Of a stretch of DNA of 64,000 bases, positions 1,461 through 58,905 are shown one piece after another. Below the pieces are notes generated by a model. That model worked only from the letters and a program-made list of their open reading frames with translations. It had not been told where the DNA came from and searched no databases. Origin of the DNA: a virus; the IMG/VR virus record IMGVR_UViG_3300025030_000005, positions 1 to 64,000 of that record; one strand, written 5' to 3'. The translations under genes were made by a program, and so were the position numbers. Position 1 is the first letter of the stretch. Each line of letters begins with the position of its first letter.

Positions 1461-1476
1461 TTCCGACATGTCGGAA
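1461..1476. repeat. conserved stem-loop element (TTCCGA-CATG-TCGGAA)
   Basis: Perfect 16-nt palindrome in the intergenic gap upstream of SD aaaaggag and ATG 1489. Confidence 0.8.
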
Positions 1477-1488
1477 AAGGAGACTTCT

Positions 1489-1737
1489 ATGAAACATAAA
1501 ATTTTCTTTCTGCTGGCTTTCTTAATGGCTGCAGGATGCACCGACCAGCCCAAAGCCACGAAAGTTCTGCAAGACAACGGATACACCGACGTGCAGATCA
1601 CTGGGTATAGCCCGTTCGCCTGCTCCGACAGCGACACCTTCAGTACAGGCTTCAGGGCTAAATCCCCATCGGGCGTAGTAGTGTCGGGTACGGTATGCTC
1701 CGGGTTCCTTAAAGGAGCCACCATCAGATTCGACTAA
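1489..1737 (+). CDS. putative lipoprotein
   Basis: MKHKIFFLLAFLMAAGC signal peptide with lipobox LMAAG|C. Start moved from 1468 to ATG 1489 behind SD ggag. Confidence 0.65.
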   Translation: MKHKIFFLLAFLMAAGCTDQPKATKVLQDNGYTDVQITGYSPFACSDSDTFSTGFRAKSPSGVVVSGTVCSGFLKGATIRFD

Positions 1738-1752
1738 CAAAGGAGGAAACAG

Positions 1753-2292
1753 ATGGAAGAATTCGTAGCATTTCCCAAAATACCAAGGCTTTCTCGTGAA
1801 GTAGTAATCACAGAGAAGATCGACGGAACCAACGCTCAAATCTACTTTACCGACGACATGCAGATGTTCGTTGGAAGCAGGACGCGCTGGATAACCCCCG
1901 GAAAGCAGGACAATACCGGGTTTGCAGGGTGGTGTGAGGCCAACAGGAAAGAGTTGGAAAAGCTCGGGCCTGGCAGACACTTCGGAGAGTGGTGGGGCCA
2001 AGGCATACAGAGAACCTACGGCCTCAAGGAAAAGAGGTTCTCTTTGTTCAACTCGCTAAGGTGGACCGACGAGGTGCGCCCTTCCTGCTGTCACGTAGTT
2101 CCTGTGCTCTGGAGAGGTAGGTTCGACACCGACCAGATCGAAAGAGTGTTGGACAACTTACGGGAAGAGGGAAGTATGGCAGCTCCTGGGTTCATGAATC
2201 CCGAAGGGATCATCGTGTTTCACACTGCCGGAAACTTCGGAATGAAGAAGACGCTCGACAACGACGCACTTCCGAAGTCTCTCGTGAAGTAG
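1753..2292 (+). CDS. ATP-dependent RNA ligase-family nucleotidyltransferase (small)
   Basis: Lysine-adenylation motif EKIDGTN (KxDGxN). SD aaaggagg. 179 aa, consistent with minimal RNA-ligase-family proteins. Confidence 0.6.
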   Translation: MEEFVAFPKIPRLSREVVITEKIDGTNAQIYFTDDMQMFVGSRTRWITPGKQDNTGFAGWCEANRKELEKLGPGRHFGEWWGQGIQRTYGLKEKRFSLFNSLRWTDEVRPSCCHVVPVLWRGRFDTDQIERVLDNLREEGSMAAPGFMNPEGIIVFHTAGNFGMKKTLDNDALPKSLVK

Positions 2293-2402
2293 CACGAGGC
2301 TCCGCCTCGACAATTTATACACCGAAGTTATCAGTCAACCGGCGTAAGCTACTGTGAAGTTGGTCTGCGTGTCCAGAGCGAAGAGTAGTAGCCGAAGCCA
2401 TA

Positions 2403-2421
2403 ACTTCCGATCATCGGAACT
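2403..2421. repeat. conserved stem-loop element (ACTTCCGA-TCA-TCGGAACT)
   Basis: 6-bp core plus a closing A-T with one mismatch. Intergenic, 22 nt upstream of ATG 2443. Confidence 0.7.
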
Positions 2422-2442
2422 CATGAAAAGGAGAAATAACAC

Positions 2443-3165
2443 ATGAAAAAGACCCTGAAACTGAACGTAGCCGCCAACCCCGCCGACCACTTCCAGACCG
2501 TGAAGGTTTCCGTCATCGAGCAGTCGCATCGCGGTGGCAACTTCGGAGCAGCCTCGACAAGCTTCATCGCCTCCAATGGCGTGAGGATCACCTCCTTGGG
2601 GTACCCCAGCATCTCTATCGACGCGTTTCGCACCGAGCTGTACGTTCGCGGTGACGGTACCGCCGCCGACAACCGCGAGATCCTCGTCCCGGTGGCCAAA
2701 CTCCCCGCCATCGAAGCGGCTGTGGCCGAGTACAACAAGAAGTTCACCTTCACCCCGAAGACTCCGGCCGCCGTGCAGCATCTGAAGGTCAACGTCGAAG
2801 GCAACCCGGCTGACCACTTCCAGACCGTGAAGGTCACCGTCCTGAGCCAGACCCACATCCTCACCGACTTCGGCACCGAAACCGCCAAGGGCTGCGGCGA
2901 GTTCGTCCACGGCAAGATACGCCTCTGCTCCTCCTCGCAGGACAACGTAGGCTTCGGCACCTACGTTCCCAGCAGGCTGAAGGCACAGGGTGTCGTCGGT
3001 ACCTTCTACGTGGGTCGCAACGTCTGGCAGCCCGCCAGCACCTTCACCGGCACCATCCCCGCCAACCTGGCAAAAGACCTGGGCGACGCCATCAACGCCT
3101 ACAACAAGAAGTTCGCCGCTCCTGTCCCGGTGGCTCCGGCTGGCTGCTCCTTCATCCTCGGGTAA
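2443..3165 (+). CDS. HIKxR-EQxH-YNEW family protein, tandem two-domain member with CSFILG tail
   Basis: Two modules in one ORF. First: LKLNVAANPADHFQTVKVSVIEQSHRGGNFG...AAVAEYNKKF. Second: LKVNVEGNPADHFQTVKVTVLSQTHILTDFG...AINAYNKKF. Pro/Ala linker, then C-terminal CSFILG. GC-rich. Confidence 0.85.
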   Translation: MKKTLKLNVAANPADHFQTVKVSVIEQSHRGGNFGAASTSFIASNGVRITSLGYPSISIDAFRTELYVRGDGTAADNREILVPVAKLPAIEAAVAEYNKKFTFTPKTPAAVQHLKVNVEGNPADHFQTVKVTVLSQTHILTDFGTETAKGCGEFVHGKIRLCSSSQDNVGFGTYVPSRLKAQGVVGTFYVGRNVWQPASTFTGTIPANLAKDLGDAINAYNKKFAAPVPVAPAGCSFILG

Positions 3166-3183
3166 AATCGAGGCGTAGTGAAG

Positions 3184-3211
3184 CTGCGGGGCTTGCGCCC
3201 CGCAGTATTTT
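3184..3211 (+). terminator. rho-independent terminator
   Basis: CTGCGGGGC-TTGC-GCCCCGCAG stem-loop followed by TATTTT. Confidence 0.8.
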
Positions 3212-3233
3212 GCTACTCACAAGGAGGTACGAA

Positions 3234-3374
3234 ATGGCTAACTTGACCTTCAACATCGGCGGCGTGCGCGTAAGTGTAGGCGCTACCGGCGTTAGGCTGG
3301 GTGTGAAGAAGGGGGACTTTTATGTATCCAAGAGGGTAATAAAGGCTTCGCCCAAAGGAAAGGTGAAAAAATGA
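3234..3374 (+). CDS. small basic protein (46 aa), possibly DUF4236-like
   Basis: SD aaggagg 6 nt upstream of the ATG. Stop overlaps the next start (ATGA). G-[VR]-x-[VL] repeats: GGVRVSVGATGVRLGVKKG. Confidence 0.45.
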   Translation: MANLTFNIGGVRVSVGATGVRLGVKKGDFYVSKRVIKASPKGKVKK

Positions 3375-4873
3375 GCGTGATAACTGAATTGGTGTTGGAG
3401 TTTGAAAACGATACCGAGAGGAAAAACGCGCTCGCTCTACTGCTTGCGGCAGGAATTCCGATGTATGATGCGGGAAGTGATTTTGAAGAAGCTTGGAGCT
3501 ATTGGAGAAAGCTAACCTCCTACCACTCTTTGAAGGTGTACTCCAACAAGAGATATATGGTTCCTAGACACCCTATCCAAATTACTAACCTTCTAAGAGG
3601 ACAAAAGAAAGTCACCCTCAAGGAAGCCCTGATCGCACTCGGCTACACCGGCCACGCCGTAGGAACAGCCGTGACCTATCCCAATTACCCTGACTCCAGA
3701 GGAGTGGTGGAAAAGGAAATGGATGACTACGGAAAACATCAAGTTCACTGGAGCGGAGGCTCCATAAACAGAGTTCCGGCTGACAAGCTGGTTCCTATCA
3801 AAAAACCTGTGGAGGTGAAACCGCCAACAAAAGAGGAGGACGAATCCATGAAAAGTAACAGAGCACCAGACGCGGTAGTGGTGCGGCTTCGTAGCCAGTC
3901 GGAAAGGAGAGAGGCAGTAGAAGCACTCTTCCGTGCTGGGTTCAAGAGCCGCGCCAAAGACCGACCAACGGCAGCGATACAGATGAAGAAGTGGGACACT
4001 GAAAAGTACCCCAACCTCAACGTCTCGTTCGCAGCAAAGGAGTTCAGCGGCAGTAACACCACCGACCTGCAGTTCGTCTCGCTGGTTGTCCTTCTGGACA
4101 AGCTGGATGACCTGAGAGCTGCAGCTGCTAGGGCAGCTGTTATGCCTAAGGCACAAGCCGCAGCTGCACCTAAAAAGGCGACTGCAAATGCGGCTAGCAA
4201 GGTCGAGGACCTCGCGCCGAAGCAGATGTACATCTGTGACAATGCAGGCGTCTGCGGGAACGGCATCTGTCATCACAGAAAGGCGCACGAGCACAGAGCA
4301 GGCTGCGCGGTGTCCCATCACGGGTATTACCGCTGCTTGGCTGGTTCTGTGTGCATCACCGTCGAAGAAGCAGCTCGCCGCTCCGGCGCAGCAGCAACCC
4401 AGGCCCATAGCGCAGTATCGACCACAACCGCAGCTCCGGCTGCCAACAAAAAGGAGAAGACTGAAATGAAAAAGACCATCATAGAGAACGTCAAGAATGC
4501 AGCAACCGAAACCGTTTCCACCCAGAAGGGCCTCCTCGTCCAGGCCGCCACCCTCGAAGCCGGCTCCATCCTGCGTGAGCAGGTCGTCGGTACCATCGGC
4601 CCCAAACTCCCCATGATGCTGCGGGGCTACGCTGCCACCCCGCTGGGCCAGGTTGTCATGATGAACCTCGTCGGCGTAGCCATCCGCACCGCCAAGCCGA
4701 ACCTCGCTTCCGATCACCCGATCCTCGCCGTCACCGACGCGGCTGTAGTGGGTGCCTACCAGGACGCCATTAAGCAGCTGAACATCGACAAGATGCTCTC
4801 CGACCTGTTCGAGAAAGGTCCCCTGGCCAAAGCCATGGCCAAGCTCGAAGCCGAGCCGGCCAAGAAAAAGTAG
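3371..4873 (+). CDS. hypothetical protein (500 aa), Ala-rich linkers and a Cys/His cluster
   Basis: Long GC-rich ORF. CDNAGVCGNGICHHRKAHEHRAGCAVSHHGYYRC cluster. An internal SD+ATG at 4466 may give a nested 135-aa product. Confidence 0.7.
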   Translation: MSVITELVLEFENDTERKNALALLLAAGIPMYDAGSDFEEAWSYWRKLTSYHSLKVYSNKRYMVPRHPIQITNLLRGQKKVTLKEALIALGYTGHAVGTAVTYPNYPDSRGVVEKEMDDYGKHQVHWSGGSINRVPADKLVPIKKPVEVKPPTKEEDESMKSNRAPDAVVVRLRSQSERREAVEALFRAGFKSRAKDRPTAAIQMKKWDTEKYPNLNVSFAAKEFSGSNTTDLQFVSLVVLLDKLDDLRAAAARAAVMPKAQAAAAPKKATANAASKVEDLAPKQMYICDNAGVCGNGICHHRKAHEHRAGCAVSHHGYYRCLAGSVCITVEEAARRSGAAATQAHSAVSTTTAAPAANKKEKTEMKKTIIENVKNAATETVSTQKGLLVQAATLEAGSILREQVVGTIGPKLPMMLRGYAATPLGQVVMMNLVGVAIRTAKPNLASDHPILAVTDAAVVGAYQDAIKQLNIDKMLSDLFEKGPLAKAMAKLEAEPAKKK

Positions 4874-4960
4874 CTAGATCCAAGATGTAGTGTGTTCTTA
4901 GAAATGCTGGGAGAGAAATCTTCCAGCATTTTTATAGACCACATCACTGAGAGGTATGAA

Positions 4961-5323
4961 ATGAAACGATTAAAATTACGTGGAGAGTACCTGCCTAGCA
5001 GAAAGATGGTGAAGATATCTGTGGTTGAAATGACCCATATGGAAGATAGCTTTGGAGGCAGGAACGGAGATGGGAGTAAAAACTTTGGCGGTCTTGCGTT
5101 TGTATCCACTAACGGTGCTAGGCTAAGGTCTGATGAATCACATAGTCAGTTTGAAAATAAGTGCACTGATGCGTATTTCAGTACAGGGCCGGATTCTTTT
5201 ACGATGTACTTGCCTAGGACTCAAGGGTACCTTGACCGATATTATTCCATTTCTACCTTAGATGAGTGGAAAAGAATAAAAGAAGCTGTTTTGGAATATA
5301 ACCACGTATTCAAGGATCTATAA
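4961..5323 (+). CDS. HIKxR-EQxH-YNEW family protein
   Basis: MKRLKLRGEY..VKISVVEMTHMEDSFGG..WKRIKEAVLEYNHVF. Start moved from 4892 to ATG 4961 behind SD gagagg. Confidence 0.8.
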   Translation: MKRLKLRGEYLPSRKMVKISVVEMTHMEDSFGGRNGDGSKNFGGLAFVSTNGARLRSDESHSQFENKCTDAYFSTGPDSFTMYLPRTQGYLDRYYSISTLDEWKRIKEAVLEYNHVFKDL

Positions 5324-5325
5324 AT

Positions 5326-5703
5326 ATGAAAAAGCATATTAAGATAAAAGGGACTTTAATCCCTCCTGAAGAGGTATGCGAGAATGGCATATATTTTACT
5401 GCCAGAGTTAAGGTTGAGATAATTGAACAAACTCACGCGGGTAGGGACTTTGGGCCTAGCATAGAACCTCACGTAACAAAGAGATGGGGTCCTATTGCTT
5501 TTGGTGGCGGCGAGTACAAACTATTCAGTGAAGATAACAGCGGAGCCATTGGGATTTATGAGGCGCATAGTACCTGCAGAGAGAAGTATTGGTTTGTGTT
5601 AGGGGATAAGAAAGAATCCTTTGAACCTACTTTCTTGTTATCTCTTGTGCACTGGGAGGAGCTTAAAAGGTTGGTTAAGGAATACAACGAATATTATGCT
5701 TAG
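5326..5703 (+). CDS. HIKxR-EQxH-YNEW family protein
   Basis: MKKHIKIKGTL..VKVEIIEQTHAGRDFG..WEELKRLVKEYNEYY. Confidence 0.85.
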   Translation: MKKHIKIKGTLIPPEEVCENGIYFTARVKVEIIEQTHAGRDFGPSIEPHVTKRWGPIAFGGGEYKLFSEDNSGAIGIYEAHSTCREKYWFVLGDKKESFEPTFLLSLVHWEELKRLVKEYNEYYA

Positions 5704-5712
5704 GAGATAATT

Positions 5713-6060
5713 ATGCGAAAGCATATTAAGATAAGAGCTGAGCTTGTAAAGATGTTAGAAGGGGATATTAGAGTTAAGGTTACCTTTATGGAGCAGAGCC
5801 ATTTTGGCGGTGATTTTGGGAATAGACCATATAACGATAAACTAAATTTAGCGCTGGGAGTATTTCATCCCGGACGTGTAAGGTTGATAAGTAGGGATGC
5901 CTGTGATGTTTCCCATATTGGAAACTTTTATAAGGGAGACACAATTAGGGTGTGGGTTCCTGAAGATCCAGATCACTTAGGTGCATTCTTTTATATGAAC
6001 TTGGATGTTTACAAATTGTTTAAAGAGACTGTCGAAGAGTACAACTCTACAGAATTTTAG
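5713..6060 (+). CDS. HIKxR-EQxH-YNEW family protein
   Basis: MRKHIKIRAEL..IRVKVTFMEQSHFGGDFG..LFKETVEEYNSTEF. Confidence 0.85.
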   Translation: MRKHIKIRAELVKMLEGDIRVKVTFMEQSHFGGDFGNRPYNDKLNLALGVFHPGRVRLISRDACDVSHIGNFYKGDTIRVWVPEDPDHLGAFFYMNLDVYKLFKETVEEYNSTEF

Positions 6061-6116
6061 GTGATGTGAGTTCCGATAAATAGTAGTGAAATTTATTAAA
6101 GAAAAGGAGATAATAC

Positions 6117-7499
6117 ATGCACGAAATTACCACCCGCGTAGCTCCAAGTCCTACAGGGTTATGCCACCTCGGCACAGCCAGAACCGCACTATACTCTTAC
6201 CTCGTCGCTAAAAAGGCAGGAAGTAAATTTATAATTCGCATGGAAGATACCGATATCGCTCGGTCCAAAAAGGAATACGAGGATGACATTCTCGCGTCAC
6301 TTGAATGGCTCGGCATAAAGAGCGACGTTCCTATCATCCGCCAGAGCGAGAGGGCAAGCATCTACAAGAAATACGTGCAGATCCTGCTTGACAAAGGCCT
6401 CGCTTATAAGTGCTACTGCACCGCCGAGGAGCTTGAGAAGAAGCGTGAAGACCAGCTCGCAGCCAAGGAAAAGCCGCTGTACGACAGAACCTGCGACGGT
6501 ATGAAAGATCAGCCCGGAAAGCCCTTCGTGGTCAGGTTCAGGGTCGAAGATCATGGCGGAGTTCAGTGGCGCGACCTCGTGCTTGGGCGCATCAACGTGA
6601 GAAAAGCGGAGATCAGCGACTTCATAATCCAACGGCAGGACGGCTCTGTGGGATATCTGCTGGCCAACATGATCGACGATGCTCTGCAGGGCGTTACGCA
6701 CATCGTTCGCGGCATCGACGGAATGGCCAATGCTCCGGCTCAGATCATGCTGTTCGAGGCTCTCGGCTTCCCTGTGCCCAACTACGCCCATACTCCCTTC
6801 ATCCACAACGAGAAGGGCGAGAAGCTGTCCAAGCGTAACGGAGCGGCTTCTGTGATGGAGTACAGGAACATGGGCATCCTTCCGGAGGCTATGGTCAATG
6901 CTCTAGTGCGCATCGGCTGGTCGCACGGAAATGACGAGATATTCTCGATGGAAGACCTCATCGAGAAGTTTGACCTCAACAACGTAGGCAAGGCCCCCGG
7001 AAGCATGGACATGAACAAGTTCCATCACATCAACAAGCACTGGCTCAAGGTAGCCGACCCAAATCGTCTTGCAGACCTCATCTTCCCGTTCCTTAAAGAA
7101 GTAGGGGTTGAAGGCCGCGCGAAGAGCAAAGGACACCCGTTCCTCGTCAACGCAATAAAAACCCTCCAGACCCGCGCCAAGACCCTCAAAGAAATGGCGG
7201 AGATGGCCAAGTTCTACTACATCTCCGATTTCGAGATGGAGAGAGCACTTTCCGAGCAGGAGAAAAAGTGGGTCATCTGCGCCCTTGACTACATCAATAC
7301 ATCCGACTTCACTGCCACCGGCCTCAATACCGCTACAGTACTTGCCATGGACAACTGCGGTACCAACAAAGCGCAGCTTCTTCCTGCCTTGCGCATGGCG
7401 CTCAGCGGAAAGTCCTGTTCCCCCGGCGTGGTAGAGATCATGGAAGTCCTCGGTAAAGAGGAAACTTGCAGGAGGATATCTGCCGCATTAGTGAGGTAG
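6117..7499 (+). CDS. gltX: glutamyl-tRNA synthetase
   Basis: Class I aaRS motifs: RVAPSPTGLCHLGTARTALY (HIGH-type) and KLSKRNG (KMSKS-type). 460 aa with a C-terminal anticodon-binding-length extension. SD aaaaggag. Confidence 0.9.
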   Translation: MHEITTRVAPSPTGLCHLGTARTALYSYLVAKKAGSKFIIRMEDTDIARSKKEYEDDILASLEWLGIKSDVPIIRQSERASIYKKYVQILLDKGLAYKCYCTAEELEKKREDQLAAKEKPLYDRTCDGMKDQPGKPFVVRFRVEDHGGVQWRDLVLGRINVRKAEISDFIIQRQDGSVGYLLANMIDDALQGVTHIVRGIDGMANAPAQIMLFEALGFPVPNYAHTPFIHNEKGEKLSKRNGAASVMEYRNMGILPEAMVNALVRIGWSHGNDEIFSMEDLIEKFDLNNVGKAPGSMDMNKFHHINKHWLKVADPNRLADLIFPFLKEVGVEGRAKSKGHPFLVNAIKTLQTRAKTLKEMAEMAKFYYISDFEMERALSEQEKKWVICALDYINTSDFTATGLNTATVLAMDNCGTNKAQLLPALRMALSGKSCSPGVVEIMEVLGKEETCRRISAALVR

Positions 7500-8051: not shown

Positions 8052-8261
8052 ATGTCTCTTACACAGGAAGAGAAGGACCGGGCAAAGTCCATCATAGTAA
8101 CGGACAGAGGGGATGAGAATATACCCAAGAAGGTGAAGAAGCATATCACCTCAATCAACGCTCCGGCATTCCTTCATGAAACCATTGGAGGAAAGTGCTT
8201 GGTGGAAGTTTGCTCTACTGAGAATCTTATGTGGGTACCTGAGAGCGACGTAACTAGCTAA
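8052..8261 (+). CDS. hypothetical protein
   Basis: ATG 8052 behind SD aggaggg (ORF-track start 8019 lies inside the previous ORF). Confidence 0.55.
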   Translation: MSLTQEEKDRAKSIIVTDRGDENIPKKVKKHITSINAPAFLHETIGGKCLVEVCSTENLMWVPESDVTS

Positions 8262-8280
8262 CTTCCGACACATCGGAAGT
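8261..8280. repeat. conserved stem-loop element (ACTTCCGA-CACA-TCGGAAGT)
   Basis: Perfect 8-bp stem. Follows stop TAA directly. SD aggagg lies 15 nt downstream. Confidence 0.85.
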
Positions 8281-9384: not shown

Positions 9385-9470
9385 ATATAGGTATATCGTT
9401 CCGACCAGCGGAACGATTCACATTATACCACACTTTTTGCATTTTGTCAAGTAAAATCTTTTATATAAAC
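9385..9470 (-). repeat. promoter + 5' hairpin cassette, inverted copy of 31706-31790
   Basis: The reverse complement matches 31706-31790 in a 28-nt block and a 45-nt block, separated by a divergent 12-nt promoter spacer. Contains hairpin ATCGTTCCG-N5-CGGAACGAT at 9395-9417. Confidence 0.85.
9422..9450 (-). promoter_or_regulatory. consensus sigma70-type promoter on the minus strand
   Basis: Reverse complement reads TTGACA-17 nt-TATAAT with TGg extended -10. It points antisense into the + strand gene 9015..9383. Confidence 0.6.
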
Positions 9471-9489
9471 ACTTTTTAGGAGCTACGCT

Positions 9490-11255: not shown

Positions 11256-11581
11256 AAAGACATATTAAAGTTAGAGCTAGGCTAACTTCGGATAACTCGG
11301 AAGTTCTCCTAACCATATTAGAACAGAGTCATTTTAGGTATAATTTTAGCGAAAAAGGACAACAGTCTCCTGAATTTCATAATGGAGTCTTTGAGCGCGG
11401 GAGAGTTCTCCTTCTAGGAGCGAGTAACACCAACGCACTCAACGACACGTTCTGGGTGCATAATAAATTCTGCGTAGTAATAGACCAAATTAATTACCCA
11501 ATTGTAACTATCTCCACAGAAATGTGGGTAGAAGTTAAGAAGGCCATACAAGCCTACAATAAGTGGGGTGAATCACTATAA
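11252..11581 (+). CDS. HIKxR-EQxH-YNEW family protein
   Basis: MKRHIKVRARL..VLLTILEQSHFRYNFS..WVEVKKAIQAYNKWGESL. ATGA overlap. Contains a degenerate stem-loop copy at 11285-11304. Confidence 0.85.
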   Translation: MKRHIKVRARLTSDNSEVLLTILEQSHFRYNFSEKGQQSPEFHNGVFERGRVLLLGASNTNALNDTFWVHNKFCVVIDQINYPIVTISTEMWVEVKKAIQAYNKWGESL

Positions 11582-11610: not shown

Positions 11611-12981
11611 ATGGCTCTTAGATTTGAAAAAATAATGGGAAAGCTAAAACCCGAAACCATTAAAAAAGTTGAGGAGCTAAAAGATACTCCCGCGCATAAC
11701 TTCGCCCGCCTTGCGGTAACCCTCGCAACCATCCGAAAGAAAACCACTGACAAACTCCATAACTCCATCAGAAAGGAAGGCGGAATTATGTCAGAAGACA
11801 CTCCCCTCGCACTTCCGATAATCGGAAATCCACAAGAGGTTGTAGTGTTCCCCAACATCAAAGCCAAAGGTTCTATGGAGTCAGTTGTTGATTACCTCAG
11901 AGCCATCCTGTCAGACCCCAAAACCAAATTACGAGTTGAGACTCGTGAGAGAGCCTTGAAGCTTGTGCTGAAAAGAGAACACACAACACTCGCTCGGCTC
12001 ATCACTGAGCACTCTGACTTGGTAGCTAAAGGTTATCGTGCAGACCAAATTGAAGCTATCAGCAAAAAGACAGCTTTACTGTTCGCAAAGCCTCGTTTTG
12101 TAATCTGCAAGACCCCCGCAGAATGCTACATCGCCTACAGCACAAATGTAATAGGAAGCTGCATGAAAAAGGGCAGCACCCATTACCAAGACTGGACCTC
12201 CAAAACGTGGGTAAAGATCGCAGACGACACCGGGCATTACCCTTCCTCGTGGTACCTCTATCTTCCGTATGCGAAGCAGTGTTACTTAGAAGTCGATGGA
12301 AGGCCGGTTGCTAGGTACATGCTATACCGTACTGATGTAACCAAGGACGAGTGGCCTTCCTACGGTTACGTCAAAGGAGAAAGCTACGTGTACTGTGACC
12401 AAGTGCATACTGAGATGAAAAGACTCGGTAAGAAGTTGGCATATGGTACGCCTACTGTGTGCAGGTTTGAGGTTCCTGCATTGTTTCATCCGCTGCTGAA
12501 AGATGGTAAGGTGGCTCACTGCCCACTTCCCTTCTCCGATGAGCATCAAAAAGACTTCTCTGTGGTTTACGACGAAGAGAAGCAGGTATTTGTGTTTGAT
12601 AAGTCTACTAAGCTTAAAGGCACAGCAGTTCCTAATATGTACCATTACCGTGGCTACATCGACAGCTCTGTTATAGTAAGAATAAACAAGAAAGAAGAGG
12701 AAAAGAAGGAGCCAGAAGCTGCTAAAGAAGTGCTAATGGGTTCAGCTAAGAGCAGAACGTGCAGGACATGCTCAAGGTTAAAGTCTGAGCACTGCAAGAC
12801 ATGTAGCACCATAAAAGATGCTGGCTACCACGATAAGTGGGAGAAGGCTCCTGAAGGTAAAGTTATGGCGGCAATAAAGAAAGTAATAATGGGCGGAGCT
12901 GCTGAAGTTAAGCTGCCGGATGCTCAGAAGGTGAATGTTGAGGCTGTTCCTGCTGATGAGTGGCTGCAAACTTTAGAATAG
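11611..12981 (+). CDS. hypothetical protein (456 aa)
   Basis: SD aggaggg. C-terminal CRTCSRLKSEHCKTCS zinc-ribbon-like motif. The central region IGSCMKKGS loosely resembles FRSCHSFDG in 16484..18076. Confidence 0.7.
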   Translation: MALRFEKIMGKLKPETIKKVEELKDTPAHNFARLAVTLATIRKKTTDKLHNSIRKEGGIMSEDTPLALPIIGNPQEVVVFPNIKAKGSMESVVDYLRAILSDPKTKLRVETRERALKLVLKREHTTLARLITEHSDLVAKGYRADQIEAISKKTALLFAKPRFVICKTPAECYIAYSTNVIGSCMKKGSTHYQDWTSKTWVKIADDTGHYPSSWYLYLPYAKQCYLEVDGRPVARYMLYRTDVTKDEWPSYGYVKGESYVYCDQVHTEMKRLGKKLAYGTPTVCRFEVPALFHPLLKDGKVAHCPLPFSDEHQKDFSVVYDEEKQVFVFDKSTKLKGTAVPNMYHYRGYIDSSVIVRINKKEEEKKEPEAAKEVLMGSAKSRTCRTCSRLKSEHCKTCSTIKDAGYHDKWEKAPEGKVMAAIKKVIMGGAAEVKLPDAQKVNVEAVPADEWLQTLE

Positions 12982-13009: not shown

Positions 13010-13579
13010 ATGCACGGAACATTTGAGTACGCACAACTCCTTATACCTATCTACAATGATCTTTACGAAAGAGCTGATGCTCTTATGCGCAGGTTCAATC
13101 CGTGCAATGTCTGCGACGGAGTTTGCGAAAGATTCAGGCGAGGAGAAGGCAAGAACTTCTGCTGTAGCGCGGATACCAAAGGGTGCGTTTACCTTGGTCC
13201 GGAAGGCTGCCGAGTGAAGGCGCTTCGTTGTAAAATTTGGGTCTGCAACGAAAATCTGATCCATCCCAGTAATCTTAGGGCATTCTCCACAGAAATGTGG
13301 AACATCCTGATAACTGCCGAGAAGTTCAAGCTGCTGGTGGTTAGAGGAAGTATGGAGGATAGTATAGCGCAGGCTTGTAGAGCTTACACCCAAAACCGAC
13401 TTGAAAGAGAAGCTATGACTTCCGAGGCTCGGAACTACAAGAGAGATCCTTTGTTCTTATCTAATGGGCTGGTACCAGCCCCTCCACTTAGGAGGGTAAC
13501 TGCTTCCTTCACAAACTTCAACAAGTACAGTGAGGTTAACACCGCTCCCATAGAGCTGACCGACGAAGTTAAGGAGTAG
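13010..13579 (+). CDS. Cys-rich hypothetical protein (possible CxxCxxCC-type metal-binding domain)
   Basis: CNVCDGVCERF..NFCCS..GCVYLGPEGCRVKALRCKIWVC. SD aaaaggag. Confidence 0.55.
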   Translation: MHGTFEYAQLLIPIYNDLYERADALMRRFNPCNVCDGVCERFRRGEGKNFCCSADTKGCVYLGPEGCRVKALRCKIWVCNENLIHPSNLRAFSTEMWNILITAEKFKLLVVRGSMEDSIAQACRAYTQNRLEREAMTSEARNYKRDPLFLSNGLVPAPPLRRVTASFTNFNKYSEVNTAPIELTDEVKE

Positions 13580-14444: not shown

Positions 14445-14921
14445 ATGAAAAAGATCAAGCTGCAGGTAGTCAACAACCAAAACTTCAACAAAGTGCTCGT
14501 GAAAGTAACCGAGCAGACCAGCCGGTACTACAACTTCGGTGGTAACGTCGCAGGCGACAGCCGCAAGTTCCAGGCCAAAAACGGCCTGATTCTTGCTTCC
14601 AACGAGCGTCCGGCACGTGACGCAGACGACTCCAGCATCGTCTGGGTTCGCGGCTACGACGCCTCCAAGGACGACTCCAGCATCGTCCTGACCCGTGCTC
14701 AGTTCGACAAACTGGGTGCTGCTGTGCGTGAATACAACGAGTTCTGGAGTGCCTCCGCAGTGTACGACAGGCAGCTCATCGCACAGCGTGCACAGGCAGC
14801 AGCTCGTCTGGCAGCTCAGCAGCTCGAAGCAGCTCGTCAGGCAGAAGCTCTGCGTCGTGCAGCTGCTGCAGCCCCGCGCTATGCTGCATCTGCAAATTCT
14901 TGCTCGTACATCATCGGCTAA
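14445..14921 (+). CDS. HIKxR-EQxH-YNEW family protein with Ala/Gln-rich tail ending CSYIIG
   Basis: MKKIKLQVV..VLVKVTEQTSRYYNFGG..AKNGLILASN..VWVRG..FDKLGAAVREYNEFW. GC-rich. Confidence 0.8.
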   Translation: MKKIKLQVVNNQNFNKVLVKVTEQTSRYYNFGGNVAGDSRKFQAKNGLILASNERPARDADDSSIVWVRGYDASKDDSSIVLTRAQFDKLGAAVREYNEFWSASAVYDRQLIAQRAQAAARLAAQQLEAARQAEALRRAAAAAPRYAASANSCSYIIG

Positions 14922-14939
14922 TTCCGACACGTCGGAAGT
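14920..14939. repeat. conserved stem-loop element (AATTCCGA-CACG-TCGGAAGT)
   Basis: 6-7 bp core directly after stop TAA of 14445..14921. Confidence 0.75.
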
Positions 14940-15486: not shown

Positions 15487-15786
15487 ATGAGAAGGCATAT
15501 AAAGTACCGAGCTAAATTAAACCCATCACTCAAAGAGGTTACTGTGGTAATCACAGAGCAGACCCACCGAGGAGACAACTTTACTCCTAGAGGTAGTCTT
15601 TTCAGGAGTTCTAGCAGATTCCGACTAGAAAGCTGCGCTACTCCTGCTTGGGAAGGTGATTCTGATGAAATGTACCTCAGAGGGTACCGTGAAGCATCCG
15701 ATGATCGAGAGTTCACTATGCCTCTGCATGTCTACTCGCAATTCAGGGAAGCCGTGAAAGAGTATAACGAAAAGTACAAAGAGTAG
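15487..15786 (+). CDS. HIKxR-EQxH-YNEW family protein
   Basis: MRRHIKYRAKL..VTVVITEQTHRGDNFT..MYLRGYREASDD..YSQFREAVKEYNEKY. Confidence 0.85.
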   Translation: MRRHIKYRAKLNPSLKEVTVVITEQTHRGDNFTPRGSLFRSSSRFRLESCATPAWEGDSDEMYLRGYREASDDREFTMPLHVYSQFREAVKEYNEKYKE

Positions 15787-16442: not shown

Positions 16443-16462
16443 ACTTCCGACACATCGGAAGT
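16443..16462. repeat. conserved stem-loop element (ACTTCCGA-CACA-TCGGAAGT)
   Basis: Perfect copy, identical to 8261-8280. A second small hairpin, CTTCGC-TTAC-GCGAAG, lies at 16417-16432. Confidence 0.85.
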
Positions 16463-18127: not shown

Positions 18128-19414
18128 ATGAAAACAAGGATTGACGATCTACTGATCGCGTCTACGGACGAGGTTTTTGACCATTGCGTAAATGAGCTGC
18201 TGAGATACTACCCGCGCCCTGCTGGTGCGCCACCTACTGTGTTCGTTCACAAAGACGATTTCGTCTACGCCCCCGGCCATGGGTCCATCTGCTTGGTGTC
18301 TCACATCGACACCGTTAGGGATAGGCAGTCCAGCGGAGCGAGGTCTTCCGTGGATGCTGAGAAGCCTGTGGCATTGAGACAGAACCGAAACGTTCTCACC
18401 AACGCCAACGGCATACTCGGAGCAGACGACAGAGCAGGCGTATTTGCTTGCCTTGACCTCGTAAGGAGGGCATATCGCGACAAGCTGCCCATGCCGAGCG
18501 TGATGTTCTTCAACGGCGAGGAGAGTGGTGGACTCGGCGTAAAAGTGTTCCTGCGCACTGAAGCATTCAAGAGAGAAGATAAAGGGTGCACCAAGCTGTT
18601 CGTAGAGATGGACAGGCTCGGGGCTACGGAGTGGGTCACCTACGGAGCTACTCTTCCGCGCCCGGTCATCGACTACGTGGAAAGCTTCGGCTTCAAGTCA
18701 GGGCACGGCTCCTACTCCGACATAGCCGACTTGCAGGAGGAGTACCTCATTCCGTCTGTCAACCTCAGCATCGGCTACTACGGCCAGCACACTCAGAGCG
18801 AAAAGCTCCACCTCGACGAAATGCACATGACCATCAACAGGGTCTACAGCATGATGAAAGACCCCATCGCACAGCTCCACCCCGTAACAAAAAAGTGGTC
18901 GTATCAGGGAAAGTCCTACGATTACTCCAATTATGGAGGAAGCAAGTACAAGGACTCTGACTATGAAAGGACCAATGGTGGCCAAAAAAACGTAAGCGGA
19001 GGAAGGGGAAACGTAAGCGCTAGTGCCTCCATTCCTCCCGTCGGGGCCTCCAGCGAAGTCATAGACCTGGTTCTCAACCACATAACCTGGGGAGGTTACT
19101 GCAAGGCTTGCGGAGATGTCTTTGCAGACTGCACTTGCGGCAGTCTGTTGGCGCAACTGCTCAAGCACCTTGAGGATGATGAACTTACCTTCCTCATGGA
19201 CAACTACCTCACCAAGGAAGATCCGATGTACGAGATGCTGGAGGAATACATCAAAGCCGCAGACGCGGCAGGGAAAGTCTCCACCCTTCTGACTGCTCAG
19301 GAGGCAGCAGAGCAGGAGGCAGAAAAAAATAAAGAAGAAGATCCGACCAAAGATCCCTTCCATGTGGGCAAAGAGGGCGATCCCATCCCTGCTGACGTAG
19401 AGGACGACAAGTAA
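18128..19414 (+). CDS. M28/M20-like zinc peptidase domain fused to an unknown C-terminal region
   Basis: Metal-ligand motifs in order: SHIDTV, GADDRAGV, NGEESGGLG. C-terminal CKACGDVFADCTCG and an acidic tail. Confidence 0.55.
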   Translation: MKTRIDDLLIASTDEVFDHCVNELLRYYPRPAGAPPTVFVHKDDFVYAPGHGSICLVSHIDTVRDRQSSGARSSVDAEKPVALRQNRNVLTNANGILGADDRAGVFACLDLVRRAYRDKLPMPSVMFFNGEESGGLGVKVFLRTEAFKREDKGCTKLFVEMDRLGATEWVTYGATLPRPVIDYVESFGFKSGHGSYSDIADLQEEYLIPSVNLSIGYYGQHTQSEKLHLDEMHMTINRVYSMMKDPIAQLHPVTKKWSYQGKSYDYSNYGGSKYKDSDYERTNGGQKNVSGGRGNVSASASIPPVGASSEVIDLVLNHITWGGYCKACGDVFADCTCGSLLAQLLKHLEDDELTFLMDNYLTKEDPMYEMLEEYIKAADAAGKVSTLLTAQEAAEQEAEKNKEEDPTKDPFHVGKEGDPIPADVEDDK

Positions 19415-19432
19415 CTTCCGATGGTCGGAAGT
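19414..19432. repeat. conserved stem-loop element (ACTTCCGA-TGG-TCGGAAGT)
   Basis: Perfect 8-bp stem between stop TAA and SD aggagg. Confidence 0.85.
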
Positions 19433-24351: not shown

Positions 24352-24366
24352 TAAGGGAGGATGTCT

Positions 24367-31696: not shown

Positions 31697-31705
31697 AATT
31701 ATTTT

Positions 31706-45748: not shown

Positions 45749-46075
45749 ATGTTCTTTTTCAGTAAAAAAGCAGATAAACATTTTAGCGAGGCTACCGCAG
45801 GAATTGAAAAATACATATCTATGTATAAACAGGCAGTAGAGGCAGCTAAAGTAGAACTTCAGAACATCGAAGTTAAAGTGGCAGAAAAGATTAACCTCTA
45901 TGACTCTAAGATCGAAGCAGCCTACTCCAAGTACATGGCTAAGGAAGCTAAGTACGGCGAGAAGTCCGCCAGACTGATGAGCACTTCCGAGGCTCGGAAG
46001 TCTGAGCTTGAGTCTATTGCAGAATTGGCACAGAGGGCTGTGGATAATCACAACCGAATTTATCTTGGGAAATAA
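45749..46075 (+). CDS. hypothetical coiled-coil protein
   Basis: SD aaaggag. Contains a perfect stem-loop copy at 45983-46001. Confidence 0.55.
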   Translation: MFFFSKKADKHFSEATAGIEKYISMYKQAVEAAKVELQNIEVKVAEKINLYDSKIEAAYSKYMAKEAKYGEKSARLMSTSEARKSELESIAELAQRAVDNHNRIYLGK

Positions 46076-51313: not shown

Positions 51314-51846
51314 TGTTCATCGGTATAGATCAAAGCAAGAGAAGTACCGCATTAGTTTGTATAAACGATGAAGGTGCGCTGAAGAACTTCCTAGTGATAG
51401 CCGCTCCTATGTCAGTAGATAACGAAGAAATGCTAGAGTGGCAGTGGAACGAAATAAGGTTTTTCGTAAGATATTGTGAAACTACATTCGGCGATATAAA
51501 GGGCATAGCCATCGAAGGGCTTAGTTTCAATTCTTCAAGTTCAGGTAAAGACTTACTCGCAGGATTATTCTGGTACATAAGGACTATGCTGTACCTGCAA
51601 GGATACCGAGTAGGCGTAATACCAGTACTGGCATGGCGCTCTAAGGTAATAGCTAAAGACGAGCGCAAAGCAATATCCGCGCTGAAGCATAAAGATGGAA
51701 TAAAGAAAGCCACAGTAGCTAAGCTGCCGTTTGAAGTTAAGGCACAGTTTGAGACTTACATACGAGATCACAAACTTAAGCAGCAGGCTATCTACGATTT
51801 ATGCGACGCGTACTTCATCGCGCAGTATAGAAGGTCAATTGAGTAA
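51313..51846 (+). CDS. RuvC-like Holliday junction resolvase
   Basis: FIGIDQS (catalytic Asp), IAIEGLSF (Glu), C-terminal DLCDAYFIA. Confidence 0.6.
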   Translation: MFIGIDQSKRSTALVCINDEGALKNFLVIAAPMSVDNEEMLEWQWNEIRFFVRYCETTFGDIKGIAIEGLSFNSSSSGKDLLAGLFWYIRTMLYLQGYRVGVIPVLAWRSKVIAKDERKAISALKHKDGIKKATVAKLPFEVKAQFETYIRDHKLKQQAIYDLCDAYFIAQYRRSIE

Positions 51847-51864
51847 CTTCCGATTGTCGGAAGT
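51846..51864. repeat. conserved stem-loop element (ACTTCCGA-TTG-TCGGAAGT)
   Basis: Perfect 8-bp stem between stop TAA and SD aaggagg. Confidence 0.85.
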
Positions 51865-52453: not shown

Positions 52454-52630
52454 ATGCTGTTATACAAACCTTTAGATATTGGTATAATTAAAAAGATGAA
52501 GGAAGAAGAGTTGTTTGACCTACTCAATGAGGTAGAAACCGCCATACAGGATTTTAAGTCTAAACAACAGCAGCTTAATGAATACCTTGCCCAGTTAAAC
52601 TATGAATTGATTCGCAGGGGAGTTCTGTAG
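52454..52630 (+). CDS. small coiled-coil protein (58 aa)
   Basis: SD taggag. Its stop overlaps the next GTG start. Confidence 0.4.
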   Translation: MLLYKPLDIGIIKKMKEEELFDLLNEVETAIQDFKSKQQQLNEYLAQLNYELIRRGVL

Positions 52631-53505
52631 TGCCTAGCGGCGCAGTAGCAAAGGATCTAGCTGGTAAAGTTTTTGGGTCTTTGACAGTACTGCATAAGGT
52701 GGAAGATTCTAGAAAGAATGCAAGGTGGCTGGTTAGGTGTGCCTGTGGTAAAGAGTTGGTGATAGCAGGATATACCCTTAAGAGTAGAAAGAATTTAAGT
52801 TGTGGGTGTGTAAAATCAACAGACCTTACCGGAAAGGTGTTTGGAGATCTGACCGTGGCTATAAAGTTAGCTCCGGATAAGTTCGGAAGAACTACCTACC
52901 AAGTCAGATGTGCTTGTGGCAGAGAGCAAATAATGGCGTCTTCCCACTTAAAGAGCAGAAAAAATAATCATTGTGGGTGCAAGTTAGATATAGACTTGAC
53001 TGACAAAACGTTTGGCAAACTTAAGGTATTAAGCCTACACGTAGAGCGCACATTGTCAGGTTTACCTAAAAATAGAAAATGGAAATGTATTTGCGAATGT
53101 GGCACCGAAAAACTTATAGCTACTAATAGGCTTACTAGCGGAGACGTTACCTCATGCGGCTGCTCTATGTACAAAAAGGGGCCGGATAATGGAAGGTATA
53201 ATCCTAATAAAACAGACGAAGAAAGGTCTGCTGATAGAACTTATGAGGAATATATAGAGTGGCGTAAGCTAATATTTGAAAGAGATGCATACACCTGCGT
53301 TTGCTGTGGCTATGATAAAGGTGGCACATTAAATGCCCACCATATTATGTCATACACTGCGTTTGAGGACTATAGAACTATAGATATTAATGGAATAACT
53401 TTGTGCAAACCGTGCCACATAGAGTTTCACGGCTTGTACGGCTACGGAGGTAATACACTATCTCAACTACTAGAATGGCAACAAATAAAAGGATTTAAAC
53501 TATGA
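52630..53505 (+). CDS. HNH homing endonuclease with four Cys-repeat modules
   Basis: Four repeats of the pattern L.GK.FG.L.V......W.V.C.CG.E......L.S....SCGC, then NAHHIMS...CKPCHIEFH. Confidence 0.7.
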   Translation: MPSGAVAKDLAGKVFGSLTVLHKVEDSRKNARWLVRCACGKELVIAGYTLKSRKNLSCGCVKSTDLTGKVFGDLTVAIKLAPDKFGRTTYQVRCACGREQIMASSHLKSRKNNHCGCKLDIDLTDKTFGKLKVLSLHVERTLSGLPKNRKWKCICECGTEKLIATNRLTSGDVTSCGCSMYKKGPDNGRYNPNKTDEERSADRTYEEYIEWRKLIFERDAYTCVCCGYDKGGTLNAHHIMSYTAFEDYRTIDINGITLCKPCHIEFHGLYGYGGNTLSQLLEWQQIKGFKL

Positions 53506-57184: not shown

Positions 57185-57187
57185 GAG

Positions 57188-57559
57188 TTGGTGACTTCGT
57201 TTTGTATATTTTGTGGAGCCGCTGAAGGCTTAGAAATACACCACGTGGTTCCTAGAGTTATGGGAGGGGATAACTCTCCCGCTAATCTGATAGCGGCATG
57301 TAGTTTGTGCCATGACAAGTTACATGCTATTGGAAAATGCAGCAACCATAAAGAACTCCAACGTATAGGCATAGAAAAAGCTAAACTAGCCGGGAAATAT
57401 AAGGGGAAGCATATTTCTAAATTAACAGACGTACAAAGGATAGAACTTATTATGAGGGTAAATTCTGGGGAGGTTAAGGCTGAAGTGGCAAGATCTTTTA
57501 ATATAAGTAGGGAGACATTATACCAATACTTAAAGGAGGCCAAAGATTGCGCTTCCTAA
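57188..57559 (+). CDS. HNH homing endonuclease with C-terminal HTH, inserted between nrdD and nrdG
   Basis: CIFCG..LEIHHVVPRVMGGDNSPANLIAACSLCHDKLH. HTH EVARSFNISRETLYQYL. Confidence 0.8.
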   Translation: MVTSFCIFCGAAEGLEIHHVVPRVMGGDNSPANLIAACSLCHDKLHAIGKCSNHKELQRIGIEKAKLAGKYKGKHISKLTDVQRIELIMRVNSGEVKAEVARSFNISRETLYQYLKEAKDCAS

Positions 57560-58008
57560 CCACTCAATACTCCCTCTCAACTCAATCTTTAGACCTATAC
57601 TTTGCGGGCTGTAACGGCCCGCACTGTAGCGGGTGTCACAACTCTGAAACATGGGACTTTGAAATAGGAAAAGAGGTATCGGCTAAAGATTTATTCAATG
57701 ATCTTTACCCTAAGTTTGTGCTATCGTCTGCTGTAATAAAACAGATAATGCTATTCGGGGGCGAACCTCTAGACCAACCTCTAGATGAGCTTACTGTTTT
57801 TATTTCAAAGGTAACTTCGTTAAACATTCCTATATGGTTATTTACTAGATATGAACTTGAAGATATACCTTTCAGCTTACGTATAAAGTTTAACTATATA
57901 AAGACTGGTAGGTACCTTGAAGAGCATAAAGTGAATAACTATAAAATGTATGGGATTAACCTTGCTACAAGTAACCAAAAAATAAGCAAGAGAGGGGTGG
58001 ATTATTAA
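57547..58008 (+). CDS. nrdG: anaerobic RNR activating protein (radical SAM)
   Basis: FAGCNGPHCSGCHNSETW cluster (Cx4Cx2C rather than the usual Cx3Cx2C). TTG start 7 nt after SD aaggagg. Adjacent to nrdD. Confidence 0.75.
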   Translation: MRFLTTQYSLSTQSLDLYFAGCNGPHCSGCHNSETWDFEIGKEVSAKDLFNDLYPKFVLSSAVIKQIMLFGGEPLDQPLDELTVFISKVTSLNIPIWLFTRYELEDIPFSLRIKFNYIKTGRYLEEHKVNNYKMYGINLATSNQKISKRGVDY

Positions 58009-58862
58009 TGTGGGAGTTAATAAAAAAATTAAAATCCACGGACGGTACTATCAAGTACGTCGTTAGATCTAATAAGAGAATAATGGAACTGTCCTATATT
58101 AATAAAGACGACGGTAAAGATATTATATGTGTACCGTCACAGACCATGTGCAATGTAGGATGCAAATTCTGTCATACTACTGACTACATAGGAAAAATAG
58201 ATTGCTATAACTTGACAGACTCAGATATATATGAGGGGGTAAGATATGTATACGAACAAGAAACGCTTGGTAATAAAGTTTTGCTTATTTCGTATATGGG
58301 GTGCGGAGAGCCTACTTACAATACTAAAAATGTTATCTCTAGTATGCAAATGATTAAAGAACGATTGTCCTCCCCATATACAAGATTTGCGGTAGCCACT
58401 TGTTTACCTAATAGCGGTGGGTTCTTTACTTTAGTAGATCTTATTAAACATTATAATTTACCAGTAAAACTGCATTTATCTCTTCACTACACTATAGACT
58501 CCATCAGAAAAGAATGGATGCCTGCTAGTATTGATATAATGCCGGCATTGGCGGCGGTGGACTTTTATAAAAAATACACCAGTAATTCAGTTGAAATTCA
58601 TTATGCCCTATTAGACGGAGTAAATGACACAGAACAAGACGCAATACTTTTGAGTACTTTCCTAAAAGATAAAGACATAAATGTTAAATTCTTATTCTAT
58701 AATGAGAAACCTACTTTAAAAGCTATAGCAAGTAATAAGTCTAAGTTAAATATATTTAGGAGATATCTTGACAAGTATAATATTCAACATGAGTACTATA
58801 TCCCTCCTGGGTTAGACATTGGAGCATCCTGCGGTCAATTTCTAATGGATTATTATGAATAA
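58008..58862 (+). CDS. RlmN/Cfr-like radical SAM methyltransferase (N-terminally short)
   Basis: SQTMCNVGCKFCHT (Cx3Cx2C), ISYMGCGEP, KLHLSLH, EIHYALLDGVNDTEQDA, INVKFLFYNE. These follow the RlmN/Cfr motif order. Confidence 0.55.
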   Translation: MWELIKKLKSTDGTIKYVVRSNKRIMELSYINKDDGKDIICVPSQTMCNVGCKFCHTTDYIGKIDCYNLTDSDIYEGVRYVYEQETLGNKVLLISYMGCGEPTYNTKNVISSMQMIKERLSSPYTRFAVATCLPNSGGFFTLVDLIKHYNLPVKLHLSLHYTIDSIRKEWMPASIDIMPALAAVDFYKKYTSNSVEIHYALLDGVNDTEQDAILLSTFLKDKDINVKFLFYNEKPTLKAIASNKSKLNIFRRYLDKYNIQHEYYIPPGLDIGASCGQFLMDYYE

Positions 58863-58868
58863 TAACAA

Positions 58869-58905
58869 GACCACTTCCAACATATCGGAAGTGGTCTTTA
58901 GTTTT
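58869..58905. terminator. bidirectional rho-independent terminator at the strand switch (extended member of the stem-loop family)
   Basis: GACCACTTCC-AACATATC-GGAAGTGGTC followed by TTTAGTTTT and preceded by an A-rich run. Lies between convergent genes. Confidence 0.75.

Follow-up and report, generated by a model that had tools for sequence, protein, structure and literature searches.

What does a short palindrome do that is repeated about 27 times along the early and middle genes of an uncultured phage, and by what is it recognised? The question is raised by IMG/VR record IMGVR_UViG_3300025030_000005 of a groundwater phage, whose positions 1 to 64,000 form the window analysed here, 64 kb of a 113,132-bp metagenome contig (ENA ERZ27254732), and carry many copies of the sequence ACTTCCGA-N3-4-TCGGAAGT. 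Approximately 83 kb of the 113-kb genome were read, and beyond the window the analysis took in 9.25 kb upstream and 15 kb of late genes downstream. The first-pass annotation of the window had proposed four roles for the palindrome: sites of RNA processing or stability, a palindromic operator for a dimeric protein, hairpin promoters of the phage N4 type, and recombination cassettes. The second of these is the best supported, short of proof, and we tentatively favour it, at a confidence that stays below the probable: the copies may be operator-type DNA sites, scattered over the long early operons and bound by a dimeric protein that recognises their sequence.

The copies are not a product of chance. 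Eight of those in the window match the full pattern exactly and 16 match its core, TTCCGA-N3-4-TCGGAA, for which the expectation is 0, since 100 dinucleotide shuffles gave zero matches to either pattern. Allowing up to three mismatches added two copies with one mismatch each (11285 and 58873) against 0.1-0.15 expected, so that the family numbers 18 in the window, and at least nine further copies in the 9.25 kb upstream bring the total to about 27. Downstream, 15 kb of late genes for the tail contain no copy, the motif being confined to the early/middle region. The earlier count of about 20 copies of one stem-loop is thus sustained, and the coordinates given for them are all correct, two (1461 and 11813) marking the start of the 6-bp core and the others that of the 8-bp arm. 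Equally sound was the observation that the stem is conserved while the loop varies: about 5% of arm positions are changed, versus about 33% of centre positions differing from CACA, and only one copy is doubly changed in a compensated manner. A constraint on structure alone would let the stems drift by compensation, and invariant arms around a free centre therefore argue against it. Lone half-sites occur at chance level, which indicates that both arms are needed. The 4-nt centres follow an alternating pyrimidine-purine pattern (YRYR) in 14 of the 15 exact-core copies and differ from CACA by 19 transitions and one transversion, which might be due to the way DNA deforms at the dyad or to a common origin of all copies from a single master. 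Centres of 3 nt are mainly intragenic (5/8, versus 2/19 for 4-nt centres; p = 0.011).

The phage has a T5-like layout, in which a long + strand early/replication block extends up to 58,862 and is followed by - strand tail genes, and all copies lie in operons transcribed on the + strand. Eleven of the 18 window copies are intergenic (binomial p = 6.5e-10), though the gene calls used for placement leave only 6% of the window non-coding and 94% coding. Five copies begin their stem with the final A of a TAA stop codon, and in most a ribosome-binding site follows 1-26 nt past the stem, in agreement with the earlier description of copies mostly set between a stop codon and the next ribosome-binding site. 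The perfect copies at 8261-8280 and 16443-16462 have the centre CACA, the former sharing its first stem base with a TAA stop codon and the latter lying 22 nt before a conserved gene for a 530-aa protein, a junction at which two related lineages (L292 and L295, see below) place palindromes of their own. A TAA stop codon is likewise overlapped at 19414-19432 (perfect, 3-nt centre TGG, with the ribosome-binding site 1 nt past the stem), 20978-20997 (centre TACA) and 51846-51864 (perfect, 3-nt centre TTG). The stop codon of gene 14445-14921 is overlapped at 14920-14939 (AATTCCGA-CACG-TCGGAAGT) and that of the primase gene at 37916-37935 (perfect, centre TGCA). Intergenic, too, are the copies at 1459-1478 (ACTTCCGA-CATG-TCGGAAaa, with a perfect 6-bp core, 6 nt past a stop codon and 11 nt before an ATG), 2403-2421 (3-nt centre TCA, 22 nt before the ATG at 2443) and 24332-24351 (perfect, centre TGTA). 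The perfect copy at 30539-30558 (centre CAAG), earlier grouped with the intergenic and gene-end copies, lies in the final codons of gene 30287-30565, and its companion in that group at 30810-30829 (ATTTCCGA-TATG-TCGGAAGA) is intragenic, as orthologues align across it; it uses a rare TCG codon that the orthologues lack.

It is inside genes that selection on the nucleotide sequence itself can be seen. Intragenic copies occur at 11285-11304 (one mismatch, ACTTCgGA-TAAC-TCGGAAGT), at 11811-11829 (3-nt centre) inside a 456-aa gene (11611-12981), at 13418-13436 (3-nt centre GGC) inside gene 13010-13579, at 26153-26171 (AGTTCCGA-AAG-TCGGAACT) inside the DNA ligase gene and at 45983-46001 (perfect, 3-nt centre). 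Perfect 8-bp stems had been ascribed to the last two; the copy at 45983 is perfect, and the ligase copy is a doubly changed variant (AG...CT) and not the consensus. At the ligase copy the window encodes KFRKSEL (AAG TTC CGA AAG TCG GAA CTC), while four orthologues have K/R-Y/H-R-K/R-T/M-E-L with AGA-type codons and lack the motif, so that, compared with these four, the copy was made by Y-to-F and T-to-S replacements plus the rare codons CGA and TCG. The copy at 45983 uses CGG, the rarest arginine codon, together with two residue changes relative to the orthologues of two related loci (L034 and L035). The rarest arginine and serine codons of the phage are those used in the copies (CGA 6%, CGG 4%, TCG 7%). 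Since the orthologues align without gaps across the intragenic copies, these arose in place by substitution and not by insertion, and the comparison of codons and residues shows that the copies in three genes, that of the ligase among them, are selected at the nucleotide level. Residue changes and the rarest codons together imply a function that does not depend on intercistronic position, and in-place origin with nucleotide selection argues against both the insertion of a mobile unit and a purely intercistronic role.

A second line of evidence comes from related loci recovered via the polymerase, the ligase, the 530-aa protein and the anaerobic ribonucleotide reductase NrdD; scans with the aminoacyl-tRNA synthetase as query, and one with a ligase query, found nothing. 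Seven related lineages each have their own palindrome of 14-20 bp in the same niche, that is, the palindrome is replaced from lineage to lineage: AATTCA-N4-TGAATT in L033 (9 copies seen), AAGTAGAA-N2-TTCTACTT in L291 (at least 6 seen), TCGGTAATTACCGA in L292 (4-5 seen), GTAGTA-N3-TACTAC in L293/L294 (6 seen), ATCAGA-CATG-TCTGAT in L295 (2 copies in 3.6 kb, flanking the 530-aa gene on both sides), GGTAGAA-CATG-TTCTACC in L296/L297 (7 seen) and TAGGTAATTACCTA in L034/L035/L298/L305 (low copy, close to terminators). Positions are conserved only in part, with copies around the 530-aa/428-aa gene pair in the window phage, L292, L293 and L295. A different palindrome per lineage in the same niche is the pattern expected of a reader and a site that co-evolve, and whether the sites are read as DNA or as RNA, their reader must be sequence-specific and must change from one lineage to the next. 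The 97% pairing across lineages carries no independent weight, because the sites were found as palindromes and the figure is circular. More distant AT-rich phages, found via NrdD, have TAAAA-N6-TTTTA in the same niche (10 per locus in L303 and 9 in L299), a sequence that cannot fold into a stable hairpin; its copies begin at stop codons and precede ribosome-binding sites (L303 1697-12565; L299 and L300 387-20130).

The window palindrome itself is also found elsewhere. Scans of viral, metagenome and genome collections gave, among the matches listed, nearly all single chance hits; several copies together stood only in an integrative element unrelated to the phage, in arrays resembling iterons and in arrays resembling REPs (repetitive extragenic palindromes). 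The integrative element (L102, Joint Genome Institute contig Ga0209123_1005290, 8.4 kb, with an integrase and a resolvase) has three exact copies, at 4688, 5023 and 7200, all in non-coding DNA and one in a divergent intergenic region, with the centres CATG, CACG and one of 3 nt, as in the window; this hints at a factor that may be host-encoded or shared. Clostridia/Oscillospiraceae elements carry tandem iteron-like arrays of GACTTCCGAnnnTCGGAAGTCAA beside a gene ending in ...KIFVKRF (L190 5946-6050, L067 3650-3790, L080 12194-12330), from which it follows that the same palindrome serves elsewhere as a repeated DNA site. In Myxococcota/delta-proteobacterial genomes, clustered CACTTCCGACyrGTCGGAAGT with G-rich spacers has a REP-like look (L241 337-369, L246 213-389, L203 7587-7651).

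Such arrays recall another explanation, that the copies are selfish or host-derived palindromes, similar to REPs or to miniature inverted-repeat transposable elements, spread by insertion, maybe copied from the host chromosome, and without a dedicated phage function. REPs are extragenic, imperfect palindromes with a conserved 5' tetranucleotide and a cognate Y1 transposase (RAYT), and, as is true of the copies here, they are species-specific short palindromes located just past stop codons in operons. The lineage-specific sequences, the transitions that make up 19 of the 20 centre differences, as for one master copy, and the identical motif in the unrelated bacterial-type contig L102 would also suit this explanation. 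We nevertheless consider it quite improbable, given that the intragenic copies arose by substitution in orthologues that align gap-free, that the arms are much more constrained than the centres, that seven lineages preserve the niche and exchange the sequence in it, that no target-site duplications were seen, and that no Y1 (IS200/IS605- or RAYT-type) transposase stands among the Pfam matches listed or the best 25 of 35 NCBIfam families.

In our favoured reading, the copies would be cis-acting recognition sites of one sequence-specific trans-acting protein, most likely a dimer that recognises them in double-stranded DNA and contacts each conserved arm with one subunit. The set of operators would span the long early/middle operons of a virulent T5-like phage, where binding may block or modulate host RNA polymerase travelling through them, or silence the region at a set time; the mechanism would be like that of the mycobacteriophage stoperators, and the repeats of Cluster O phages, discussed below, presumably act so too. 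The protein nature of the reader, its binding to DNA instead of RNA and an effect of binding on transcription are inferences, and the gene for the reader may belong to the phage or to the host. Several observations speak for duplex DNA. The hairpins of the relatives are mostly of -1.4 to -5.5 kcal/mol, and several sister palindromes fold weakly (-1.4 to -3.2 kcal/mol as RNA, -1.9 to -2.9 as DNA), which favours a duplex site. L033 has two copies whose distance to a TTGACA -35 element downstream is exactly 7 nt, and a further copy that separates -35 from -10, each of them lying after a terminator, and this promoter geometry, with a near-copy just past the -10 of a repeated promoter in the window, favours an operator, as does the absence of copies from the late genes. 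Site length and arm spacing (9-12 bp centre to centre) fit the operators of helix-turn-helix dimers, and the non-coding copies of L102 and the Clostridia tandem arrays would be contexts typical of DNA-binding sites.

Other observations weigh against this operator reading. Centres of 3 and 4 nt coexist in one genome and both seem to be selected, a variation that a rigid DNA dimer disfavours and to which a hairpin reader is indifferent. Window stems are strong, perfect copies having predicted RNA hairpins of -9.3 to -9.7 kcal/mol and 6-bp cores of about -6. All lineages have hairpins with an effective loop of 3-4 nt, and L291 and L296 have a common arm, GTAGAA, at spacings that differ by 2 bp with identical hairpin geometry. 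AC-centred copies outnumber GT-centred ones by 9:2 (p = 0.065), and the centres in L033, mostly GAWG, also have a strand bias. Most window copies are not near promoters, the motif is built into a terminator at 58867-58898, scans of the window with Pfam, PHROGs and NCBIfam recognised neither a repressor-like protein nor another DNA-binding regulator, and the evidence covers only about 83 kb of the 113-kb genome.

Many of these points would be met by an element that acts in RNA, namely a short mRNA hairpin through which a lineage-specific RNA-binding protein or endoribonuclease (RegB- or Cas6-like) controls downstream translation or cuts the message and so inactivates it, or which passively stabilises or insulates it. 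This main rival, which we regard as possible if rather doubtful, gains from the location of the copies in + strand operons, from the stop codon to 1-26 nt before the ribosome-binding site, from the use of both loop lengths, the stable window stems, the reuse in a terminator and the weak strand bias of the loops, as well as from a related promoter-proximal hairpin that would be 5'-terminal on its transcript and from the phage's wealth of RNA-handling genes (an RNA ligase, a CCA-adding/poly(A) polymerase-type enzyme with an HD domain and an ASCH-like 'RNA-binding protein'). It fits less well that the stem sequence itself, and not just pairing, is conserved while the loops, the usual surface for protein recognition in RNA, are free. 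In imperfect copies G.U is about as frequent as A.C on the sense strand (6 vs 5, a count that is in itself uninformative), the sister-lineage hairpins are weak, the intragenic copies with rare codons have no obvious intercistronic role, the L033 copies occupy stretches from a terminator to the next promoter, which should yield little RNA, and L102 carries the identical motif in non-coding DNA, its divergent intergenic region included. The early mRNAs of T7 and SP82 carry RNase III sites between cistrons, and the copies resemble such T-even/T7-type hairpins in lying between the cistrons of early polycistronic mRNAs. RNase III sites, however, need about 20 bp of double-stranded RNA (two helical turns), often with an internal loop, whereas the stems here are of 6-8 bp and do not extend into their flanks on the + strand. 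The proposal of RNA processing or stability sites therefore survives as a rival to the operator but not in its RNase III form, against which the weak sister hairpins (-1.4 to -5.5 kcal/mol) also speak. The C(UUCG)G intercistronic hairpins of T4 (cited in PMC8948821) have a conserved loop and varying stems, the opposite of the motif here.

Specialised transcription signals form a further group of explanations: N4-like hairpin promoters, factor-dependent terminators, promoter-stem-loop (PeSL) cassettes or solitary CRISPR-repeat mimics. The hairpin shape, a lineage-specific sequence that recalls phage-polymerase promoters and one copy within a true terminator are in their favour. The phage, however, already has six sigma70-type promoters with 12/12 consensus bases, an extended -10 and common flanking sequence (22746, 31726, 32707, 44637 and 59885 on the + strand, 9450 on the - strand), which suggest a host with canonical promoters and strong ribosome-binding sites. 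Promoters of the N4 type are few, with a hairpin of 5-7-bp stem and 3-nt loop upstream of early operons, and are used by a phage RNA polymerase; the copies here number about 27, have 8-bp stems and loops of 3-4 nt and lie in operons and genes, down to 1 nt from a ribosome-binding site, and no RNA polymerase gene was recognised among the scanned window proteins, so that this proposal of the first-pass annotation is not upheld. In T4-type phages a PeSL joins an early promoter to a stem-loop and flanks novel or shuffled open reading frames, whereas no promoter-like site adjoins the copies and synteny breaks are not enriched at their junctions (adjacency kept in 2/7, versus 14/68 elsewhere; p = 0.64), which tells against the recombination cassettes likewise. 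Intrinsic terminators were rejected, as no T-run follows the copies on the + strand except at 58867-58898, an extended copy as had been noted; here the early (+) genes converge with the late (-) genes, and a terminator that works in both directions is built from a one-mismatch copy (58873) with GACC/GGTC extended arms and a T-rich tail; in that copy the A.C mismatch of the + strand becomes a G.U pair on the - strand. The true terminators of the phage are unique G+C-rich hairpins with T-runs. No Rfam family, CRISPR direct repeats included, was found at the copies at the gathering score or even at E <= 5, and the collection loci with closely spaced copies are, among the matches listed, iteron- or REP-like and not CRISPR arrays. 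As a group these signals appear very improbable. The Racr after which such mimics are modelled are solitary CRISPR-repeat units that resemble a direct repeat of the host (PMC10651486).

A promoter does accompany a hairpin related to the motif. Variants had been reported at 9395 and 31759; both hairpins exist, but they belong to the two arms of an inverted repeat of about 95 bp that includes promoters. In this module a perfect TTGACA-17-TGnTATAAT promoter drives transcription into a hairpin with a 9-bp stem; the module occurs three times, twice on the - strand: at 9385-9480 (-) and 31700-31790 (+) in the window and upstream of it at L045 2581-2660 (-). At 9395-9417 (-) the hairpin, ATCGTTCCG-N5-CGGAACGAT, lies a few bases past the -10 of the promoter at 9450-9422 (-), and the inverted copy at 31759-31781 (+) follows the promoter at 31726-31754. 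The module resembles a PeSL. Two of its copies face the 3' ends of + strand operons in antisense orientation, and L034 (1219) and L035 (1683) have the same promoter-hairpin arrangement with a different stem.

If a protein reads the palindrome, which one could it be? Scans of 78 small and about 20 large proteins with Pfam, PHROGs and NCBIfam revealed none of repressor type. One gene, at 57188-57559, encodes a 123-aa protein in which a minimal HNH nuclease is fused to a serine-recombinase C-terminal arm and a helix-turn-helix; it is inserted between nrdD and nrdG and absent from the relatives. Its C-terminus is 46% identical to the helix-turn-helix of the L102 resolvase, the only such match, among those listed, in 1.9 Mb of motif-selected loci. 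This is the only protein domain common to the window and L102, and it would fit a further explanation, in which a DNA nuclease or recombinase, specific for structure or for sequence, acts at the copies, be it a resolvase-type helix-turn-helix such as this one or an enzyme of T5-like programmed nicks. Serine-recombinase dimers tolerate variable spacing. The phage resembles T5 in its genes and their layout, and site-specific nicks are found in the DNA of T5-like phages (PMC10644984). We judge the explanation improbable, because closer homologues, a resolvase (L308, 61% identity in the helix-turn-helix) and an HNH-helix-turn-helix protein in the same nrdD/nrdG slot (L309, 55%), lie on contigs without the motif, for which reason the protein was also rejected as the reader, and because a palindrome would be cut on both strands; a literature search found no consensus for the T5 nick site. 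Since L309, another phage, has its 55%-identical gene in that slot, the window gene is probably a homing endonuclease.

Other candidates fared no better. The gene at 27254-28083 (-), the sole - strand gene of the early block, combines GIY-YIG and helix-turn-helix domains and was rejected as a regulator because it is of homing-endonuclease type. For the 530-aa protein, whose gene lies between copies, homologues were confined to the clade and zinc-ribbon matches were weak. A paralogous family of 100-125-aa proteins, which accounts for 26 of about 110 genes (window 4961-32703; for example 5326-5703, 15487-15786, 21459-22135, 24361-25306, 30956-31696 and 32350-32703), does not track the motif, being multi-copy also in L291, L292 and L293 with a distribution independent of the palindrome. 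Its members follow the pattern MKxHIKVRAKL...EQTH.G..FG...W..IK.A..AYNEW and have no Pfam match, and an AlphaFold model that is confident (predicted local distance difference test, pLDDT, 91) has no significant structural match in the PDB.

Among known systems, the closest architecture is that of the Cluster O mycobacteriophages, which carry 34 copies of a 17-bp dyad, 5'-TGTTCGG-NNN-CCGAACA, a third of them intragenic (PMC4351075). Both sets have invariant short arms, a variable centre, tens of copies and a mixture of intergenic and intragenic sites, and both are denser in the non-structural region, with many copies in tiny intergenic gaps (PMC4351075). Cluster O phages also have a small number of strong host-type promoters and no integrase (PMC4351075), as is the case here, where neither an integrase nor a repressor was found in the 83 kb read and there is no sign of lysogeny. 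They differ in phage and host, which are unrelated, in sequence and in a centre always 3 bp long, whereas centres here are of 3 or 4 nt and a stop codon is often overlapped; the turnover of palindromes between lineages and the codon-level selection found here are not mentioned in the accessible part of that description (PMC4351075). The extended start-associated sequences (ESAS) of Cluster K are inverted repeats just upstream of the ribosome-binding sites of some non-structural genes, with a consensus that varies by subcluster (PMC3203893), and their function was still untested in 2025 (PMC12699233). They share with our copies that position, a variable spacer and a lineage-specific consensus, and differ in having 17-bp imperfect arms, a spacer of 4-13 bp and a tie to a 13-bp asymmetric start-associated sequence (SAS) that includes the ribosome-binding site (PMC3203893). 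No SAS-like element was found at the copies here, where beyond the palindrome there is only an ordinary AGGAGG at variable distance. Cluster A stoperators, bound by L5 gp71, likewise number more than 20 and are scattered over short intergenic gaps, in many cases at a stop codon; they affect RNA polymerase during elongation, and their sequence co-varies with the reader between lineages (PMC9283540, PMC6550527). Unlike the palindromes here, they are asymmetric, transcription-oriented 13-mers bound by a monomer in temperate phages with an identified repressor (PMC9283540, PMC6550527). By analogy, the palindromes may extend the kind formed by Cluster O repeats, Cluster K ESAS and stoperators to an unrelated, virulent-looking and uncultured clade.

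As for the window phage itself, the early block encodes an RNA ligase, a class Ic aminoacyl-tRNA synthetase, a DNA ligase, helicases, a primase, a family A polymerase, a flap exonuclease, SbcCD, NrdD and its activating enzyme NrdG. No near-identical phage was found in INPHARED, the best polymerase match among deposited phages having 28% identity and the nearest deposited relatives all lying below 30%, while Rifle-type groundwater data sets also hold fragments of the window phage. The left end (37-7499) groups an RNA-repair/translation set made up of the CCA-adding/poly(A) polymerase-type enzyme with its HD domain, the RNA ligase and the synthetase. A tRNA gene search of the window found none; at least one tRNA gene lies directly upstream (L045 3815-3895), and RtcB is present in relatives. 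The HNH gene at 52630-53505 is also of homing-endonuclease type, and the small proteins of the window include one LAGLIDADG match.

Dispersed short palindromes had already been noted in a few phage groups, such as Cluster O and, as ESAS, Cluster K. New here are a series of related genomes that fill the same niche with different sequences, direct evidence of selection on the nucleotide motif inside genes, and a case in a large virulent T5-like phage. A bolder conjecture, which we think unlikely, is that a virulent T5-like groundwater clade has a re-addressable cis/trans code, in which the hairpin-forming palindromes of 14-20 bp proper to each lineage would mark its early and middle genes, entering coding sequence even where this costs rare codons, and would be read by a fast-respecifying protein of unrecognised fold, maybe a hairpin-specific RNA/DNA endonuclease, or a host factor in common with other mobile elements, as the identical motif in L102 would suggest. 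In any event, a reader whose specificity co-varies with the motif should exist, and it would reveal either a new type of global early-gene switch or a programmable, hairpin-specific nucleic-acid-binding protein.

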